A DNA stretch of 64,000 nucleotides from Patescibacteria group bacterium (GCA_016861245.1 BOKZ01000001.1:13107-77106); one strand, 5' to 3'; positions 1,917-47,161 are shown, counted from the first letter of the stretch. Notes: generated by a model from the sequence alone, not told the origin. A program made the numbers and translations.

Positions 1917-4760
1917 ATGAAAAAGTTTCGCATTAGTTTGCCGAAGTTCCGCTGGCCACTGTCAAATCCTGTCCAAGTCACAAAATTGCACCAGAAGCTT
2001 TTCGGGAAGAACCGACGAAAACTAACGTGGAAGCGCGTCGGAGTTGTCTTTTTATGGGGCTTAGGAACGGTAATCCTCGGAATTGTTTTACTGTTTGCTT
2101 GGTTTGCTAAGGATTTACCGACGCCCGGTAAAATCCGAGCGCTTACATCTGAGAGCTCAACACGGCTATTTGATCGCAATATGAAGCCTCTTTACACCAT
2201 CTCGGGGGAGAAGAAGCGGATACTAGTTGAGAGTAACGAAATTCCCGACGTCGTTCGTCAAGCAACAATCGCGCTTGAAGATCATAATTTTTACGAACAT
2301 ATCGGCATCGACGCCAAAGGTTTAGCCAGAGCGGTAATTTACGGCGGCTCGCGTGGCGGCGGCTCGACGATTACCCAACAGTTTATTAGTAATAGTTTGC
2401 TCGATAAAAAGCGGACGATTGTTCGTAAAATCAAAGAAGCAATTCTTGCAGTAGAGCTTGAGGCGCTTTACGACAAAGACAAGATTCTTACTATGTACCT
2501 TAATGAGATTCCGTACGGCGGTAATAATTACGGAATCGAGGCGGCAGCTCGCTCGTTTTTCGGAAAATCGGCGATGGAGTTAACGCTCTCAGAGGCAGCG
2601 ACGCTCGCGGCGCTCCCCCAACAGCCGTCAACGCTCTCACCGTACGGACCAAACCAAGATAAGTTACTAGCCAGGCGTAATTTCGCGTTAGATGAGATGA
2701 CTGACCTTGGGTTTATCACAAAGGAACAGGCTGAGGCCGCTAAAAATGAGGTTCCTAAATTTGTAGCTAAACGCGAATCGATAACTGCGCCGCACTTTGT
2801 TATTTACGTTAAAGACTGGCTTGTTACTCACTTTGAAGAAGAATTAGGCGACAAGCAGCTAGCAGAGCAGAAAGTTGAAAGCGGCGGCTTAACTGTTATT
2901 ACAACGTTAGATTTAGACAAACAACGAATCGCCGAAGACGCTATCGCTAAAGTCCGTGACACCACACTCAAACGCGCCGGCGCTAGTAACGCCGCATTAG
3001 TGTCGATCGATCCGAAACGCGGCGAGGTTATCGCCATGGTCGGCTCGGTCGATTATTTCCAAGAGCAGTTTGGCGCGTTTAATATCGCTACTGCTAAACG
3101 ACAGCCAGGATCGTCGTTTAAACCGATCGTGTACGCCGCTGGTTTTAAAGAAAAGTATAACCCGGCGTACGTGCTCTACGACTTAAAGACTGATTTTGGT
3201 AATTACGAACCCGATAACTTCGATAACCGTTTCCGTGGTCCGGTTACAATTCGACAAGCGCTCGGAAACTCCCTGAATATCCCAGCAGTCAAGATGGCCG
3301 GGATGGTCGGTTTAGAGAAGGTGCTCAGTACTGCGAGCGATCTTGGCATTACAACACTTACCGATAAAGACCGGTACGGGCTTTCGGTAGCGCTCGGTGG
3401 CGGCGAGGTACGACTGCTCGATATGGCAACCGCCTACGGAGTGTTCGCCAATAAAGGTACGCTGGTACCAACGACACCGATTCTTAAGATTACCGATTCT
3501 TCAGAAAAGGAGTTATATAACCACGATCAGCCGAAAGACAGTCGAGAAGTGCTCAACCCACAAGCCGCCTACCAAGTTACAAGTATATTAGCTGATGTTG
3601 AGGCGAAGCGTCCGGTGTTCTCGGGCGTGATGAACGTGTTAACGCTGAGAAACCGACCAGTCGCTTCCAAGACTGGTACGACCAACGCCTATCGCGACGC
3701 TTGGACGGTCGGTTACACGCCGCAGTACGCTACTGCCGTTTGGGCCGGCAATAACGACCAGACAGCTATGAACCGCGCCGGCGGCTCAACTGCGGCTGCC
3801 CCAATTTGGGACGATTTTATGGAACGGGTTCACGCCGATCTACCTGTCGAGCAGTTCGAACGACCAGCTGGGATCGAAGAGATAACTGTCGATCGGCTCT
3901 CAAATAAGCTACCCATCGAAGGCTCAGAGCCGATTAAAGATATTTTCGCTAAATGGCAGATTCCGACCGAAAAAGACGACGTTCACGCGCGAGTACGAGT
4001 CTGTAAGGAAAACGGCTTACTCGCCGACGCCAGTATCCCTAACGAATTAGCTGAAGAACGGACGTTTTCATACGTTAAATCAGAAAAGCCGGAGAACCCG
4101 AATTGGGAGAATCCTGTTCGCGCTTGGGCGATCGCAAATGGCTACAATAACAAACCACCGACCGAGAAATGTTCTGGTGCTGGCGACGTCAAACCAACTA
4201 TTTCCATTACTACCCCCGGAAACGGTACAGAAGTTACTGGGGTGTTCGCCATCGCCGCGTCAGCGAGCGCACTGAGCGGCGTACGCCAAGTTGAGTTCCT
4301 TATCGATAACACTTCGATCGGAATCGATACCGGCGCGCCGTACGAAACCAGTTATAACGCAGCCAATTTATCGAACGGTTCTCATACGATCGGCGCGATC
4401 GTAACAAGTAACAACGGCGCGACCGCCTCGACGCAAGTTACGGTTACTGTAAGTAACGACACGACGCCCCCGGACAACGTTACCGGCTTTACCGGCTCAC
4501 CTGGACCAGGGTCCGGAAAAGTCTCGCTCCTCTGGGCATCAAACCCGCCGCAAAGCGACTTCAAACTAGTTCGGATTTACGTATATCTTGACGCGAGTAA
4601 CACCTTACTTCGAACTGTCGAAGTAAATAAGCCAAATAAATCGGTGGTAATTAGCGGGCTAACAAGTCTAATTGCTCACCGATTCGTTGCTAAAACCGTT
4701 GACGAAGTCGGTAACGAGAATAACACCAACAACCCGTTCGTTGTAATCACCCCGCCTTAA
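1917..4760 (+). CDS. Class A penicillin-binding protein (transglycosylase/transpeptidase) with C-terminal Ig-like extension
   Basis: N-terminal TM helix. GT51 motifs EDHNFYEH..GGSTITQQ. Transpeptidase SSFKP and SKTGT motifs. About 250 aa of C-terminal Thr/Ser-rich Ig/Fn3-like sequence. Confidence 0.88.
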   Translation: MKKFRISLPKFRWPLSNPVQVTKLHQKLFGKNRRKLTWKRVGVVFLWGLGTVILGIVLLFAWFAKDLPTPGKIRALTSESSTRLFDRNMKPLYTISGEKKRILVESNEIPDVVRQATIALEDHNFYEHIGIDAKGLARAVIYGGSRGGGSTITQQFISNSLLDKKRTIVRKIKEAILAVELEALYDKDKILTMYLNEIPYGGNNYGIEAAARSFFGKSAMELTLSEAATLAALPQQPSTLSPYGPNQDKLLARRNFALDEMTDLGFITKEQAEAAKNEVPKFVAKRESITAPHFVIYVKDWLVTHFEEELGDKQLAEQKVESGGLTVITTLDLDKQRIAEDAIAKVRDTTLKRAGASNAALVSIDPKRGEVIAMVGSVDYFQEQFGAFNIATAKRQPGSSFKPIVYAAGFKEKYNPAYVLYDLKTDFGNYEPDNFDNRFRGPVTIRQALGNSLNIPAVKMAGMVGLEKVLSTASDLGITTLTDKDRYGLSVALGGGEVRLLDMATAYGVFANKGTLVPTTPILKITDSSEKELYNHDQPKDSREVLNPQAAYQVTSILADVEAKRPVFSGVMNVLTLRNRPVASKTGTTNAYRDAWTVGYTPQYATAVWAGNNDQTAMNRAGGSTAAAPIWDDFMERVHADLPVEQFERPAGIEEITVDRLSNKLPIEGSEPIKDIFAKWQIPTEKDDVHARVRVCKENGLLADASIPNELAEERTFSYVKSEKPENPNWENPVRAWAIANGYNNKPPTEKCSGAGDVKPTISITTPGNGTEVTGVFAIAASASALSGVRQVEFLIDNTSIGIDTGAPYETSYNAANLSNGSHTIGAIVTSNNGATASTQVTVTVSNDTTPPDNVTGFTGSPGPGSGKVSLLWASNPPQSDFKLVRIYVYLDASNTLLRTVEVNKPNKSVVISGLTSLIAHRFVAKTVDEVGNENNTNNPFVVITPP

Positions 4761-9472: not shown

Positions 9473-10829
9473 CTAGTAGTACAACATCGTCCGGCGTTAT
9501 CAAGCTCCGCAGGAACGTCGCTGCTTCATCTAGTGAGGAGCGGTACTCGACATCTGGCTTACTCTTTTTCACTGCATCGATTAAATCCTTAATCGTAACG
9601 TAGCCGCTCTTCTCGCGAGCGGACGCCCAAATATTCAGGAGAATTAGTTTATCAGGTGACTGTAAGCTCTTCGCAAACTCGTGTAATAACTTTCCAGTTC
9701 GACTATAGGTATGCGGCTGAAAGACGGCCACTAAGCGCTTTCCGGGAAACCGTGCTCGCGTCGCCTCAAATAAGTACTCAAGCGCGCTTGGATGATGCGC
9801 GTAATCGTCGAAAATCTGAGCGCCGTTGAAGGTTCCAAGCAACTCAAACCGACGTTTCGGTCCGGAAAATTTACCAAGCGCTTTAATCGCGATTTTTTCT
9901 GAGACGCCAAGTTTTACCGCCATAACGAACGCCGCAGTTGTATTGAGGGCGTTGTGTTTGCCGGGCATCTTACAATGAAATGGTCCGATCTTGTGATCTT
10001 CAGTTTTCAGCCAGAACTCCGATTGAGTATCAGTCTCAGAGTAATCGATTACCTGGTAACTCGCTCCTGGTAGAAATCCGTAGGTTTCACACCCCCGGTC
10101 AACTAAACGCCCAACCAACCGACGAACAAGCGGCCAGTCGACGCAAGCAACGATCGTTCCGTTGCGCGGCAATTTGGTAGTTAGTTTGTAGAAGGCATCA
10201 TAGACTTGGGTGGCGCTTTGAAACACGTCGGGATGATCCAGCTCAATACTAGTAATAATAACGTGTTGGAGAGGATAGTCTAAGAATTTTGGTTGGAGTT
10301 CGGTATCCGATTTTTTATACTCGTCGGCTTCAACGATGAAATGACTGCCGTCGCCAAGGTGCGAGCTACCTTCAAGACCAGGAATATCGCTTGTGCCGAT
10401 CGCGTAGCTCGGTGAAAATCCGGCTTCTTTTAATGCGAACGCTAGCATCGAGGTAGTGGTTGTTTTACCGTGAACGCCCGCCACTCCAACGCCCTCGTAG
10501 CGACTGATAATTTTACCTAACATTTCAGATTGTGGGATCGTCGAGATTCGAGCAGATTTGGCGGCTTTTACTTCTGGGTTTTGTAGCCCGTACGCCGCGC
10601 TAACGATCACCAACTCTGGTTTAGTTTGAGTGATATGGTTCGCGTCAAAGCCTGAGAAATACTCAATACCGTGCTCGGCTAAAAGCGAGTCCGTAATAAA
10701 GACTTCTTCAACGTCGCTGCCAGTCACTTCGTAGCCTAACTGCTTTGCGATTACCGCCAACCCAGTCATCGCCACACCTTTAATACCGATAAAATACAAC
10801 GACTTCGGCTCGCCTTTAGTTTTTGCCAT
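9420..10829 (-). CDS. murC: UDP-N-acetylmuramate--L-alanine ligase
   Basis: YFIGIKGVAMTGLA N-terminus, GVAGVHGKTTTTSM P-loop, Mur ligase C-terminal domain. Confidence 0.85.
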   Translation of the reverse strand: MAKTKGEPKSLYFIGIKGVAMTGLAVIAKQLGYEVTGSDVEEVFITDSLLAEHGIEYFSGFDANHITQTKPELVIVSAAYGLQNPEVKAAKSARISTIPQSEMLGKIISRYEGVGVAGVHGKTTTTSMLAFALKEAGFSPSYAIGTSDIPGLEGSSHLGDGSHFIVEADEYKKSDTELQPKFLDYPLQHVIITSIELDHPDVFQSATQVYDAFYKLTTKLPRNGTIVACVDWPLVRRLVGRLVDRGCETYGFLPGASYQVIDYSETDTQSEFWLKTEDHKIGPFHCKMPGKHNALNTTAAFVMAVKLGVSEKIAIKALGKFSGPKRRFELLGTFNGAQIFDDYAHHPSALEYLFEATRARFPGKRLVAVFQPHTYSRTGKLLHEFAKSLQSPDKLILLNIWASAREKSGYVTIKDLIDAVKKSKPDVEYRSSLDEAATFLRSLITPDDVVLLVGAGDVYKIYDKLTSDS

Positions 10830-11928
10830 CGATCTCCTTAATTATTTCTGAAATTGTTGCTTGTGTTTTAAAGTACTCCTTTAGTCGATTGCCGATTTCC
10901 TGGAGTTTCTCTGGGTTTGAGATTAGTTTAAGTATGTCTTGAACAAAAACTTCCGTCGAGAGTTGATACTCCTGTCTCACAATTGCTGCGTTAGCCGAGT
11001 CTAACCTCAGCGCGTTTTCGTACTGGTGATTAGCCGCTGCAGTTGGTAGCGGCACGAGATACATCGCTTTCGCAAAGAGTGCTGCCTCAGCGATTGTGGT
11101 AGCGCTAGAACGCGCAACAACCAAATCAGCGCTCTGGAAGTACAGCGGCAATTCTCTATCGATAAAACTATACGGCTTATAATGCGAACGTTGTGAGGTG
11201 TTTAGAGACTCTTTAATCTTTATAAACTCTTGGTACTCGCGTTCTCCGGTTAAGTGAACCACATCCAACGTTTCTAATAATTTAGGCAGAGAGCTTCGAA
11301 TAAACGAATTTATGGCCGCGGAACCCTGGCTTCCAGGCAACACGAGTAGTAGTGGTCGTGATTTTTTCGGTGCTTTTAACGTGGCTGCCCGTCGTAAAAC
11401 AGCACGAACTGGAATACCGACCTGACGGTAACGATCGTTTCTATTCGGATAGCTCTCGAGCCCAAACGCAGTTAGTACTCGATCGGCAACCGCGGCGCTT
11501 AAACGATTTGTCATTCCCATAACTGCGTCGGATTCGTGAACAATAATTCGACAACCCAGTAACTTCGCGGCGAAGACAACCGGAAGGGCAACGTAACCGC
11601 CCTTACTAAATACTGTCCCAACTTTATTACGCCGAATAACTTTGATTGACTGAAAAAAACCGATCACAACCTTCACAGTATCAACAATATTTGAGACAAG
11701 CGATTTAAATGTTGAGTATCGTCTCCATTTTCCAGCTTGAATCGTTTCGAGTTTCCATCCCAAATTAGTTACTACCCGTTCTTCGAGACTCTCGGCAGAG
11801 CCGATGAATATAAACTCTCGCTTCTGTTGAGCCAATTCCTCAGCGACAGCAACAAGCGGAAAAACGTGACCACCCGTGCCACCACCGACCAGCGCAATTA
11901 CGTTATTATTTTGTTTCTCTTGAAGCAT
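10816..11928 (-). CDS. murG: UDP-N-acetylglucosamine--N-acetylmuramyl-(pentapeptide) pyrophosphoryl-undecaprenol GlcNAc transferase
   Basis: GGGTGGHVFP N-terminal motif, GT28 architecture, dcw context. Confidence 0.85.
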   Translation of the reverse strand: MLQEKQNNNVIALVGGGTGGHVFPLVAVAEELAQQKREFIFIGSAESLEERVVTNLGWKLETIQAGKWRRYSTFKSLVSNIVDTVKVVIGFFQSIKVIRRNKVGTVFSKGGYVALPVVFAAKLLGCRIIVHESDAVMGMTNRLSAAVADRVLTAFGLESYPNRNDRYRQVGIPVRAVLRRAATLKAPKKSRPLLLVLPGSQGSAAINSFIRSSLPKLLETLDVVHLTGEREYQEFIKIKESLNTSQRSHYKPYSFIDRELPLYFQSADLVVARSSATTIAEAALFAKAMYLVPLPTAAANHQYENALRLDSANAAIVRQEYQLSTEVFVQDILKLISNPEKLQEIGNRLKEYFKTQATISEIIKEIDGKN

Positions 11929-25649: not shown

Positions 25650-25856
25650 CTACTCCGCTGACGCACTAATAAACAAAAAGGCGCTAACAACGAGCGCGCC
25701 GACACCGCTCCAGATTAAAAATTTACTAACGTCAAAACCCGCTTCCGCGACGCCACCAGCTTTAAGGTCGGTACCACCTACAAACGAAGTAATCATCAGA
25801 AATCCCCCTAGTACCATAAACACGGTAGCGCTAATTACCCGTGTACGTTTGTTCAT
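25650..25856 (-). CDS. Small membrane protein (68 aa)
   Basis: Two predicted TM helices. No recognisable family. Confidence 0.35.
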   Translation of the reverse strand: MNKRTRVISATVFMVLGGFLMITSFVGGTDLKAGGVAEAGFDVSKFLIWSGVGALVVSAFLFISASAE

Positions 25857-25888
25857 ACAATGAATATCTCAAAATTGCCTCAAACAAA

Positions 25889-25914
25889 AAAGACCCATGG
25901 GGGTCTTTTTTTAT
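25889..25914 (-). terminator. Rho-independent terminator downstream of 5S rRNA
   Basis: AGACCCATGGGGGTCT palindrome flanked by A-run and T-run. On the minus strand it sits right after the 5S 3' end. Confidence 0.65.
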
Positions 25915-25928
25915 TTAAACTCTTTATC

Positions 25929-26045
25929 TTGGCGTCGGCCTACTTTCCCGAGGGCTGTTAGCCCTGAGTATCATCGGCGCTGGCAGGCTTAACTTCTCTG
26001 TTCGAAATGGGAAGAGGTGTACCCCTGTCGCTCGAGACACCAAGA
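25929..26045 (-). rRNA. rrf: 5S ribosomal RNA
   Basis: The reverse complement reads CTTGGTGTC...CACCTCTTCCCATTTCGAACAGAGAAGTTAAGCCTGCCAGCGCCGATGATACTCAGGG...GACGCCAAG, which matches the 5S consensus helices. Confidence 0.75.
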
Positions 26046-26130
26046 TAAAAAGTTCAAACGCTTAACTTCAATTACAAATCTGATTATAACGTGCTCGGAT
26101 AGAGTGGCGAGCGAGCTCGCCGAGGTAGGT

Positions 26131-26373
26131 CTAGTAGCGCTGAGGGGTGATCGAACCCTCGGCAATACATTTCTCCGATGAGAACAGTCGCTTACAGCGA
26201 TAGACCTTGTACTGACCATCGGTGAGTGAGTGTGCAGAGATTAATGCGTCAACATGACCGCCGGCGAGTTTGATCGCATCGGCATCGTTTTTCGCGTCGA
26301 ATTCCGGGCTGTTCACCCGCTTGGATTTGTGTTGGTTGTCTGATGCTGAGCATTTCACGATATACTTCGCCAT
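26131..26373 (-). CDS. Hypothetical 80-aa protein encoded in the 23S-5S spacer
   Basis: ATG preceded by GGAGGTGAGCA. Same strand as the rRNAs. No recognisable family. Confidence 0.45.
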   Translation of the reverse strand: MAKYIVKCSASDNQHKSKRVNSPEFDAKNDADAIKLAGGHVDALISAHSLTDGQYKVYRCKRLFSSEKCIAEGSITPQRY

Positions 26374-26489
26374 TGCTCACCTCCATCCGAGAACGTTATA
26401 TTGTTGTGGTTTCCAAACCAAAGTCGAAGACAATTCAGGCGACGTTCCTTCTTTCCTGCGTAGAAATTACGCGCAGAAAAGAAGTAGTA

Positions 26490-29775
<3,286 letters not shown>

Positions 29776-30038
29776 TTGCTTCAAATATGATTAAGGAACC
29801 ATATTTGAAGTTGTGCTGTCGTCGAATTGTCTTCGACTTCAGCTTGGAAACCTAGTTGTTAAGCATTCATCAGAGGTAAGAAAAAACCGCTTTGGCGAGC
29901 GGCTTCTAAGGTGACCCCAAAATAGTGGTCTCTTATAAACCGACGCCTCCTTGTGTTTTTCCTAACATGTACCTGGTGATTGTCCCATATTTGCGCATAT
30001 TGCGTCAAGACTCTGCCTGAGCGCTTGAAGAGCAATAA

Positions 30039-39494: not shown

Positions 39495-39580
39495 TAAGCC
39501 TAATGTATGTTTGAGTCAAAAAAGGATCAAGTCTAAAAAAATTGAGTAAAATTACCCACCATCAGGTGGGTATTTATCAG

Positions 39581-39653
39581 TGGACCGTTGGGGATTCGAA
39601 CCCCACACCTCCGCAGTGCAAATGCGGCGCTCTACCAAATGAGCTAACGGCCC
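39581..39653 (-). tRNA. tRNA-Ala (anticodon TGC)
   Basis: Cloverleaf GGGCCGT/ACGGTCC acceptor, anticodon loop TTTGCAC, T-loop GGTTCGAATCC. No encoded CCA. Confidence 0.85.
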
Positions 39654-45065: not shown

Positions 45066-45139
45066 GGGCGATTAGCTCAGCTGGTTAGAGCGCGTCACTG
45101 ATAATGACGAGGTCACTGGTTCGAGTCCAGTATCGCCCA
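45066..45139 (+). tRNA. tRNA-Ile (anticodon GAT)
   Basis: GGGCGAT/ATCGCCC acceptor, anticodon loop CTGATAA, T-loop GGTTCGAGTCC, discriminator A. Confidence 0.85.
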
Positions 45140-45149
45140 CGAATATGCA

Positions 45150-45270: not shown

Positions 45271-46718
<1,448 letters not shown>

Positions 46719-47161
46719 CATAAAAATTCCTGTAGGGATTTTTATGAGAGTTTGTCTTCGCACTCTTCAGAAGAATTGTGCTCAGATCAAACTCTTACCT
46801 TTTGGTAAGAAATTTGTGTCCGACGGCCGAAACCGTCTTCGTCAAACTCTTTGAGATTTAACTCACATAAAAGCCTACTGAACCTTACGAGCGAAATGAT
46901 AAATCATTTCAGCTGACATACTGTTTTGTTTTTTTGGAATTGTTTGGCACTCTCTCGTTTTACCGAGAAAGGGATGGAAATTTGCCAGTCCATCGGCTGG
47001 TTTGTTCTTGTAACCGCGAAATGTTCGCGATTACGCTCCTTTGTTCCCGTGGTAGGTAAAACAAAGGTCCCGCTTGTTAAAGCAGCAAAGTACGTCTGTA
47101 ATTGTACCTATTAGGTTTCCTTGCGTCAACGGCTGCGCAGCGGGTAGGCTAGAAGAAGATT

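Follow-up and report, generated by a model that had tools for sequence, protein, structure and literature searches.

A small open reading frame within a stem-closed insertion of the 23S-5S rRNA spacer in a Patescibacteria group bacterium

Protein genes expressed from within an rRNA operon are rare. The known rRNA insertions that carry an open reading frame (ORF), namely IVSs and introns, lie inside the rRNA genes, and a tested IVS ORF, that of Coxiella, appears silent. In a window of 64,000 nt from a Patescibacteria group bacterium (GCA_016861245.1, BOKZ01000001.1:13107-77106), which is the whole stretch of DNA analysed here, an 80-aa ORF lies in the spacer between the 23S and 5S rRNA genes, raising the question of whether it is a gene at all and, if so, of what kind. 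A first-pass annotation of the sequence had suggested that its product might be a ribosome-associated factor, a small nucleic-acid-binding protein or the relic of a mobile element. The evidence set out below suggests that the ORF is probably the cargo of an IVS-like insertion of the 23S-5S spacer, that is, a lineage-specific small gene which is co-transcribed with the rRNA.

The reading frame and the structures around it

The ORF is a real reading frame, located inside a hairpin-bounded insertion (Table 1). Its placement in the 23S-5S spacer on the rRNA strand agrees with the Rfam coordinates and its translation is exactly as first quoted, while the distances originally given as about 115 nt from the 23S gene and about 85 nt to the 5S gene are 110 nt from the 23S end to the ATG and 86 nt from the end of the ORF to 5S. 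Since the Rfam match to 23S covers the whole covariance model (1-2925), the ORF is not part of that gene. No promoter-like site is present between the 23S gene and the ORF, so that co-transcription with the rRNA, also proposed in the first-pass annotation, is the natural reading. The encoded product is small, hydrophilic and basic, with a net positive charge and no membrane helix as read from its sequence, and it includes the tryptic peptides VNSPEFDAK and LAGGHVDALISAHSLTDGQYK.

The sequence upstream of the ORF is GGAGGTGAGCAATG, with GGAGGTGAGCA directly preceding the ATG and an in-frame TGA 6 nt upstream of it. As the 3' end of the 16S rRNA reads GGATCACCTCCTTTCT, the Shine-Dalgarno (SD) sequence GGAGGTGA is a perfect complement of it over 8 nt, with a 6-nt gap to the ATG, which bears out the anti-SD match reported earlier. 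This octamer occurs twice in the 64 kb, before the spacer ORF and as the complement of the 16S tail, with 1.3 occurrences expected by chance. SD motifs are sparse in the window, a 4-nt core being found before the first start codon in 7 of 48 real genes and before 7.3% of internal control triplets. The SD of the spacer ORF is by far the best in the window and atypical of genes in this genome. The 16S tail retains CACCTCCTTTCT, although few genes of the window have an SD motif.

Table 1. Features of the 23S-5S locus in the window and of the corresponding spacers in three related lineages (L015, L014 and L019, in the coordinates of their own contigs).
Feature	Coordinates	Strand	Remarks
80-aa ORF	26131..26373	-	ATG 26373-26371, TAG 26133-26131; loop content of the cassette
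SD-like GGAGGTGA	26377..26384	-	6 nt ahead of ATG, within 5' arm of enclosing helix
5' arm of enclosing helix, TATAACGTTCTCGGATGGAGGTGAGC	26375..26400	-	contains the SD
3' arm of enclosing helix, GCTCGCCACTCTATCCGAGCACGTTATA	26085..26112	-	CCACTCT stretch pairs with the SD
Small G+C-rich hairpin, GGCGAGC-TC-GCTCGCC	26106..26121	-	just past the stop codon; read directly
23S processing stem, 3' strand	26408..26443	-	ends 7 nt before the cassette 5' arm
23S processing stem, 5' strand	29818..29851	-	in the leader upstream of 23S
Hairpin at 23S 3' end, 12-13 bp	26448..26484	-	inverted repeat and fold
23S rRNA	26484..29743	-	Rfam, model 1-2925 of 2925; 3260 nt
Second cassette, 336-nt insertion in 23S helix 45	28044..28379	-	arms about 45 nt; GAGGTG-cgta-ATG
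58-aa ORF, MYQWLQLLKLIILVGLLTLFVMCLVVGAWIPKGDPHERWIVILALLCLVAVSLIIRFC	28134..28310	-	within the helix-45 cassette; two hydrophobic (transmembrane) helices
5S rRNA	25927..26044	-	Rfam
Terminator-like hairpin, AGACCCCCATGGGTCT then T run	25886..25906	-	past 5S; read directly
68-aa predicted membrane protein gene	25650..25856	-	right after the 5S terminator
tRNA-Ala	39580..39653	-	5.6 kb beyond tRNA-Ile
tRNA-Ile	45066..45140	+	adjoins 16S, opposite strand
16S rRNA	45274..46725	-	Rfam
L015 cassette arms	11482-11499 / 11880-11897		94% complementary; dUTPase 76% identical; spacer 481 nt; ORF GGGAGGTGGCCTTGTG, 107 aa
L014 cassette arms	10560-10575 / 10835-10850		88% complementary; dUTPase 81% identical; spacer ~600 nt; ORF GAGGAGGCTGATGATG, 73 aa
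L019 cassette arms	2595-2615 / 2867-2887		81% complementary; RecO 52% identical; spacer ~600 nt; ORF TAAGGAGGTGGTACATG, 78 aa

The whole ORF is enclosed by a long-range helix that begins just past the 23S processing stem. An inverted repeat (26381-26400 / 26085-26104) of 20 nt with 90% complementarity is lengthened in both the MFE and the centroid folds to about 26 bp, and the spacer folds with a z-score of -3.8, none of 100 shuffles folding as well. In this predicted fold the SD has an unpaired probability of 0.02. Both arms of the helix are invariant among 21 population sequences, and the spacer has no match to an Rfam family, even at E <= 1. In the hairpin located just past the stop codon, the 3' half is the very GCTCGCC to which GGTGAGC of the 5' arm is paired, and an alternative pairing is therefore possible; its counterpart in the L015 cassette, GGCGAGCGATTCGTTCGTTCGCC and then ACCC, occupies the corresponding position. 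It may be speculated that GCTCGCC acts as a switch between two partners, the local GGCGAGC and the GGTGAGC that adjoins the SD.

The 23S processing stem is formed by complementary strands on both sides of the 23S gene (26443-26408 / 29851-29818), with 3 mismatches in an 18-nt core for which 0.03 matches are expected by chance. Beyond the 5S gene, the terminator-like hairpin is likely the end of the 23S-ORF-5S transcript, and a consensus scan did not list it. The transcript would consequently be ordered as a leader, the 23S rRNA closed by its stem, the ORF closed by its own stem, the 5S rRNA and the terminator-like hairpin. The gene that follows encodes a 68-aa membrane protein which is 48-55% identical to its orthologues in L014 and L015, with a C-terminus that is always ...SASAE; no Pfam family matches it, and it seems to represent a genuine, as yet unnamed, family of small genes in the clade.

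The same 23S gene carries a second cassette, in helix 45, which is a classical IVS site. This 336-nt insertion, owing to which the 23S gene is 3260 nt long, is of the same design (stem, SD, small ORF) and in the same operon as the spacer cassette. It is found in L001, at 99.7% identity, and is absent from L009, which is otherwise 94-96% identical, while its 58-aa ORF has no Pfam match. The helix-45 cassette, as well as the enclosing helix that pairs with the SD, had been missed in the first-pass annotation.

With regard to the organism, the 16S gene lies 15.5 kb from the 23S-5S pair, so that the rRNA genes are unlinked, and the interval is occupied by protein genes. Among named organisms, the neighbouring dUTPase is most similar to proteins of 'Patescibacteria group' and Berkelbacteria, at ~48% identity. 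A scan of genome contigs with the dUTPase gave only one close and one distant genome, and L009 ('MAG: bacterium isolate DTUPAT3') is the sole close species representative in the genome collection, at 94-96% nucleotide identity. Identity as a Saccharibacterium was considered and excluded by the test that Saccharibacteria-specific 16S primers do not match.

The same spacer in related lineages

Relatives were taken as contigs with homologues of the dUTPase or of RecO, on each of which the rRNA genes were mapped; several other dUTPase-bearing contigs ended before the spacer. The gene order dut-23S-5S-(small membrane protein)-RecO-Alr is kept in these relatives. Four lineages of this Patescibacteria-like clade, including that of the window, have a common spacer design, composed of a helix, a GGAGG placed 6-7 nt before the start codon and a loop-filling ORF of 73-107 aa. 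The arms in L015, L014 and L019 are 16-21 nt long and 81-94% complementary, with the ORF on the same strand within. The SD is predicted to be paired in all four cassettes, with unpaired probabilities of 0.21, 0.04 and 0.001 in the other three, and in L019 the 3' arm, CACTTCCTTTCT, is almost identical to the 16S tail CACCTCCTTTCT. Comparison of the homologous arms of L014 and L019 reveals one compensatory change from G-C to A-T, three one-sided changes that preserve pairing and none that disrupts it, which may be taken as modest covariation support for the stem.

In two further lineages, L024 and L018, the spacer is short and lacks the insertion. The L024 spacer is ~95 nt long and has a small hairpin, TTACTAC-gagcaatc-GTAG, where L015 has 411 nt. 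L024 and L015 are 92.6% identical over dut plus 23S, and the L015 spacer corresponds to the L024 backbone with 411 nt in place of 12 nt in the loop of the small hairpin, whose stem the L015 arms extend. Similarly, L014 corresponds to the L018 backbone with 319 nt in place of 2 nt. In all cases the cassette is followed closely, at its 3' boundary, by the conserved 5S leader (A)GATTTGTATG...TTGGTG. Other parts of the spacer vary as well: the hairpin at the 23S 3' end is common to the window and L019 (2303..2345) and absent in L014, L015, L018 and L024, and a structured domain of ~140 nt is present in L014, L018 and L019 and absent in the window, L015 and L024. The processing-stem element CTTCRACTTTGGTTTGGA is conserved in the alignment of L014, L015 and the window, with small changes in L018, L019 and L024. 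The spacer is thus a patchwork of helix gains and losses.

The products of the four ORFs have no significant similarity to one another, nor are the cassette interiors similar at the DNA level between lineages, while the flanking non-coding backbone is 76-87% identical. The neighbouring 68-aa gene serves as a control: over this evolutionary distance it retains 48-55% identity, so that a small protein under conservation should still be recognisable, and the spacer ORFs are not such proteins. The window and about 250 kb of related sequence contain no second copy of any cassette, nor do mobility genes accompany the cassettes, so that mobility is inferred only from presence and absence. The 5' arm and SD of the window align to the ordinary spacer backbone of L014 and L018, which means that the left end may be recruited spacer and not imported DNA. 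This alignment favours evolution in place for the left end at least, whereas the clean presence and absence of the cassette and the unalignable interiors argue for replacement of the cargo.

Several resemblances between these spacers were also noted. A similarity, with p = 0.007 before correction for about 10 tests, exists between the 3' arm of the window at 26085..26108 (GCCACTCTATCCGAGCACG...) and the opening codons of the L014 ORF at 10586..10614 (GCCACTCTATGTGCACG...). In L019, a small hairpin at 2530..2565, AGGTGGGCGGTGAGCAAATGTGCGCTCCACCTCT, is located about 50 nt upstream of the cassette. It shares GGTGAGCAA(A)TG with the SD-ATG segment of the window (26366..26393), and its 3' half resembles the 3' arm of the window; in local alignments the resemblance to the 3' arm has p = 0.01 and that to the 5' arm is not significant. 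This hairpin may be an emptied cassette site or an ancestral hairpin. The 23S genes of two of the relatives have insertions of their own: a LAGLIDADG_1 ORF near the 3' domain in L014 (9413..9991), as a result of which the Rfam 23S match ended early, and a group I intron (RF00028) in L019 (375..563).

Coding potential of the frame and its rival explanations

The product of the ORF has no usable match in Pfam, NCBIfam, PHROGs, PADLOC or PDB sequences, in keeping with the original remark that it resembles no recognisable family; a Pfam scan at E <= 10 gave a chance match only (CDCA, E = 0.11). A word-indexed search of 5.8 billion protein clusters returned its own cluster alone, with seven alleles at 96-99% identity, all of 80 aa. 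Six further matches from an exhaustive HMMER search were rejected, being long WD40, EGF-like, Cys-repeat and Ig-like repeat proteins that summed weak repeats. A profile built from the four spacer ORFs retrieves only those four, and each of the L014, L015 and L019 ORFs is without a database relative beyond its own entry on a single contig. As gene callers also place ORFs inside the 23S gene on contigs of members of the window's own cluster, the occurrence of an ORF product in protein databases does not in itself indicate a gene. A shared motif, [A/G]-[H/K/Y]-x-L-[S/T]-[D/N]-G, was considered and rejected, since it is not significant by Smith-Waterman alignment with shuffling and has two placements in the window protein. 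Structure prediction, which the first-pass annotation had put forward as a check, gave AlphaFold models of low confidence, with a pLDDT of 44 for the window protein and of 59 for that of L019, both too uncertain for fold searches. Literature searches for ORFs in 23S-5S spacers yielded nothing relevant.

Taken alone, the open frame of the window is not remarkable. A stop-free run of equal length is found on the sense strand in 25% of cassette shuffles, and when the frame is fixed by the SD-proximal ATG it is as long in 5.5% of them. The case beyond chance comes instead from recurrence in the relatives and from codon usage. Using dinucleotide shuffles with the frame set by the SD-proximal start, the p values of the open frames are 0.055 in the window and 0.010, 0.060 and 0.030 in the other three, with a Fisher combined value of 5.6e-4; the spacing of 6-7 nt between GGAGG and the start codon, seen in all four cassettes, is additional to this value. 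The log-odds codon-usage score of the window ORF is 0.176, compared with 0.217 +/- 0.079 for real genes, a value that exceeds those of 59 of 60 wrong-frame ORFs and corresponds to the 30th percentile among real 80-codon windows, and ten ORFs of at least 60 aa located wholly inside rRNA genes score 0.008 or below. Scores of 0.208, 0.222 and 0.056 were obtained for L014, L019 and L015, respectively. Codon usage is gene-like in three of the four cassettes, and in each of the four the frame set by the SD scores highest among the six. In the 21 population sequences, the ORF has 12 variable sites, six of them synonymous, all third-position transitions, and six non-synonymous (S11L, N13S, Q14H, A47E, F64L, S74P), with every allele intact at 80 aa and none truncated. 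This corresponds to a pN/pS of about 0.3, a suggestive but borderline signal of constraint, with a binomial p of 0.05-0.12 from the 6 + 6 counts.

The strongest rival reading, unlikely in our judgement, holds that the cassette encodes no protein and is a structured, non-coding enlargement of the spacer that provides a further processing helix, the ORF and SD arising as by-products of an RNA with balanced G+C content and few stops. With its SD buried in the stem, as is predicted for all four lineages, the ORF might never be translated, and arms that are more conserved than the interior, together with interiors that cannot be aligned where the flanking non-coding backbone still can, speak for this reading as well. 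Shuffled segments of this short length contain stop-free runs of 57-72 codons on average, and L019 also has an antisense ORF of 122 aa (2494..2862, minus strand), which scores 0.156 against 0.159 for the sense frame under an own-locus codon model. The low AlphaFold confidence points in the same direction, as does the Coxiella IVS ORF, which is apparently not made in vivo (PMC4990558). On the other hand, a GGAGG at the proper distance from the start of the loop-filling frame in all four lineages, with its combined p value, speaks against it, as do gene-like codon usage in three of four cassettes, a best-of-six frame defined by the SD in each and population variants of which half are synonymous third-position transitions. 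Moreover, SD motifs are little used in this genome, so that a perfect 8-mer is not background.

It is also conceivable, though improbable, that the act of translation matters and not the peptide, with ribosome loading at the SD unwinding the cassette or timing the maturation of the 23S and 5S ends. We know of no precedent for such a role. It would explain why the frame, the SD and the length are kept while the sequence drifts, given that the stem, SD, start, loop-filling frame and a stop just inside the 3' arm are conserved among amino-acid sequences that are unrelated, and pairing between the SD and the anti-SD-like arm would compete with 16S tails. However, the two related lineages without a cassette indicate that it is not needed for rRNA maturation, and the excess of synonymous changes over expectation, as well as the gene-like codon usage, suggest some constraint on the product.

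Still less probable is an addiction module resembling type I toxin-antitoxin systems, in which the mRNA would be silenced by a 5'-3' fold-back over the SD and activated by processing. The long-range pairing that hides the SD, as in hok mRNA, is in keeping with this, and the helix-45 sister cassette encodes a toxin-looking 58-aa peptide with two hydrophobic helices; the spacer ORF product, in contrast, is a hydrophilic, basic protein that lacks a membrane helix, a promoter scan gave no sign of an antisense promoter or RNA, and there is no match in PADLOC, Pfam or PHROGs. Finally, a conserved ribosome-associated or nucleic-acid-binding factor with its gene kept in the rRNA operon for co-regulation, a reading close to two of those suggested in the first-pass annotation, would fit the operon position, the strong SD and the net positive charge of the product, yet it is highly improbable, since the protein is confined to one species-level cluster at >= 96% identity and the spacers of relatives with the same synteny, whose conservation the annotation had proposed to check, hold unrelated ORFs or none, at a distance where the neighbouring 68-aa gene is still readily recognised.

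Proposed expression of the cassette and comparison with known systems

If the ORF is the cargo of an IVS-like spacer insertion, the cassette would have no promoter of its own and would be transcribed from the rRNA promoter within a 23S-ORF-5S precursor. A double-strand-specific RNase (RNase III) would cut the cassette stem, as it does the adjacent 23S stem and the stems of classical IVSs, thereby freeing 23S and 5S for maturation and releasing an essentially one-gene mRNA of ~300 nt. In the precursor, the SD would be paired with a segment of the 3' arm that resembles the anti-SD, which would keep translation off. Once the stem is cut, or the local GGCGAGC/GCTCGCC hairpin forms in its place, the SD would become accessible, and production of the small basic 80-aa protein would follow that of rRNA. 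We infer this course of events from the anatomy of the locus, which, like the comparative pattern, is observed directly, and from knowledge of RNase III. Hypervariable cargo and a cassette that is dispensable in relatives point to an accessory or selfish role and not to one in ribosome biogenesis; the cassette looks accessory, possibly selfish, judging by these comparisons. Among the first guesses at its nature, the relic of a mobile element came closest to the data.

A bolder proposal, which we regard as doubtful, is that the spacer of this clade is a cargo slot, in which a one-gene mRNA within its own processing stem is matured from the pre-rRNA like a third rRNA. The SD would be held by an intramolecular mimic of the 16S tail and freed by processing or through competition from free 30S subunits, and the slot would be quickly refilled or rewritten, giving each lineage an orphan protein of its own that is made in fixed linkage with ribosomes. 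Irrespective of this proposal, a clade with small genomes repeatedly retains an SD-led, codon-adapted frame in a stem-closed 23S-5S loop, with cargo that is entirely different in each lineage. If these frames are translated, protein dosage would follow rRNA transcription, and the spacer would constitute a case in nature of mRNA maturation through the machinery that processes rRNA, as well as a site of quick orphan-gene turnover. There are also consequences for annotation, as masking between rRNA genes would hide such ORFs, while blind ORF calling inside rRNA yields many false genes.

Insertions in rRNA genes have been described in CPR/Patescibacteria, the same kind of organism, with the rRNA operon likewise crowded with insertions; these comprise group I/II introns with LAGLIDADG or GIY-YIG genes, and some that are uncharacterised (PMC11270868). 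The spacer cassette differs from them in being located outside the rRNA genes, and the main text of that survey does not contain 'spacer' or '23S-5S' (PMC11270868). A group I/II intron with a homing endonuclease was rejected for the spacer cassette, as there is no Rfam match (gathering score or E <= 1) and no endonuclease domain. An origin from a MITE or transposon was likewise rejected: although the cassette has inverted ends, its junctions show no target-site duplication, and a second copy is lacking in the window and in about 250 kb of related loci.

Messenger RNAs matured by RNase III include phage T7 early mRNAs, lambda and E. coli adhE. As in these and in rRNA processing stems, the cassette has a helix formed from both sides of a functional RNA, and this helix adjoins the 23S stem; the putatively cleaved RNA is in this case an mRNA in an rRNA operon, and not an rRNA or a phage transcript. 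The hok mRNA is inhibited by a fold-back in which long-range pairing hides the SD. The cassette SD is similarly masked by long-range pairing, which processing could relieve.

The closest resemblance is to the IVSs of 23S helices 9, 25 and 45 in Salmonella, Leptospira, Coxiella and others. IVSs are bordered by stems, excised by RNase III and sporadic, replacing the loop of a small hairpin, and they are transcribed within the pre-rRNA, with some carrying an ORF (PMC4990558). The spacer cassette has the same complementary ends forming a long stem (26375-26400 / 26085-26112 in the window), it replaces a hairpin loop, as seen from the small hairpin that L024 has at the site, it would be transcribed within the rRNA precursor, and it is sporadic in close relatives, with L024 and L018 lacking it and L015 and L014 having it on the same backbones. 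Its ORF, however, does not belong to the S23p / 23S_rRNA_IVP family, with no match in Pfam or NCBIfam, and has a strong, correctly spaced SD where that of the Coxiella IVS ORF is poor; furthermore, its cargo differs completely between lineages, unlike that of IVSs. The location is also distinct, since the cassette lies outside the mature rRNA, past the end of the 23S model and before the 5S gene, and its excision would fragment no rRNA. As all features of an IVS apart from a location in mature rRNA are present, with a probable excision by RNase III, the insertion is best described as an IVS-like cassette and not as an IVS proper.
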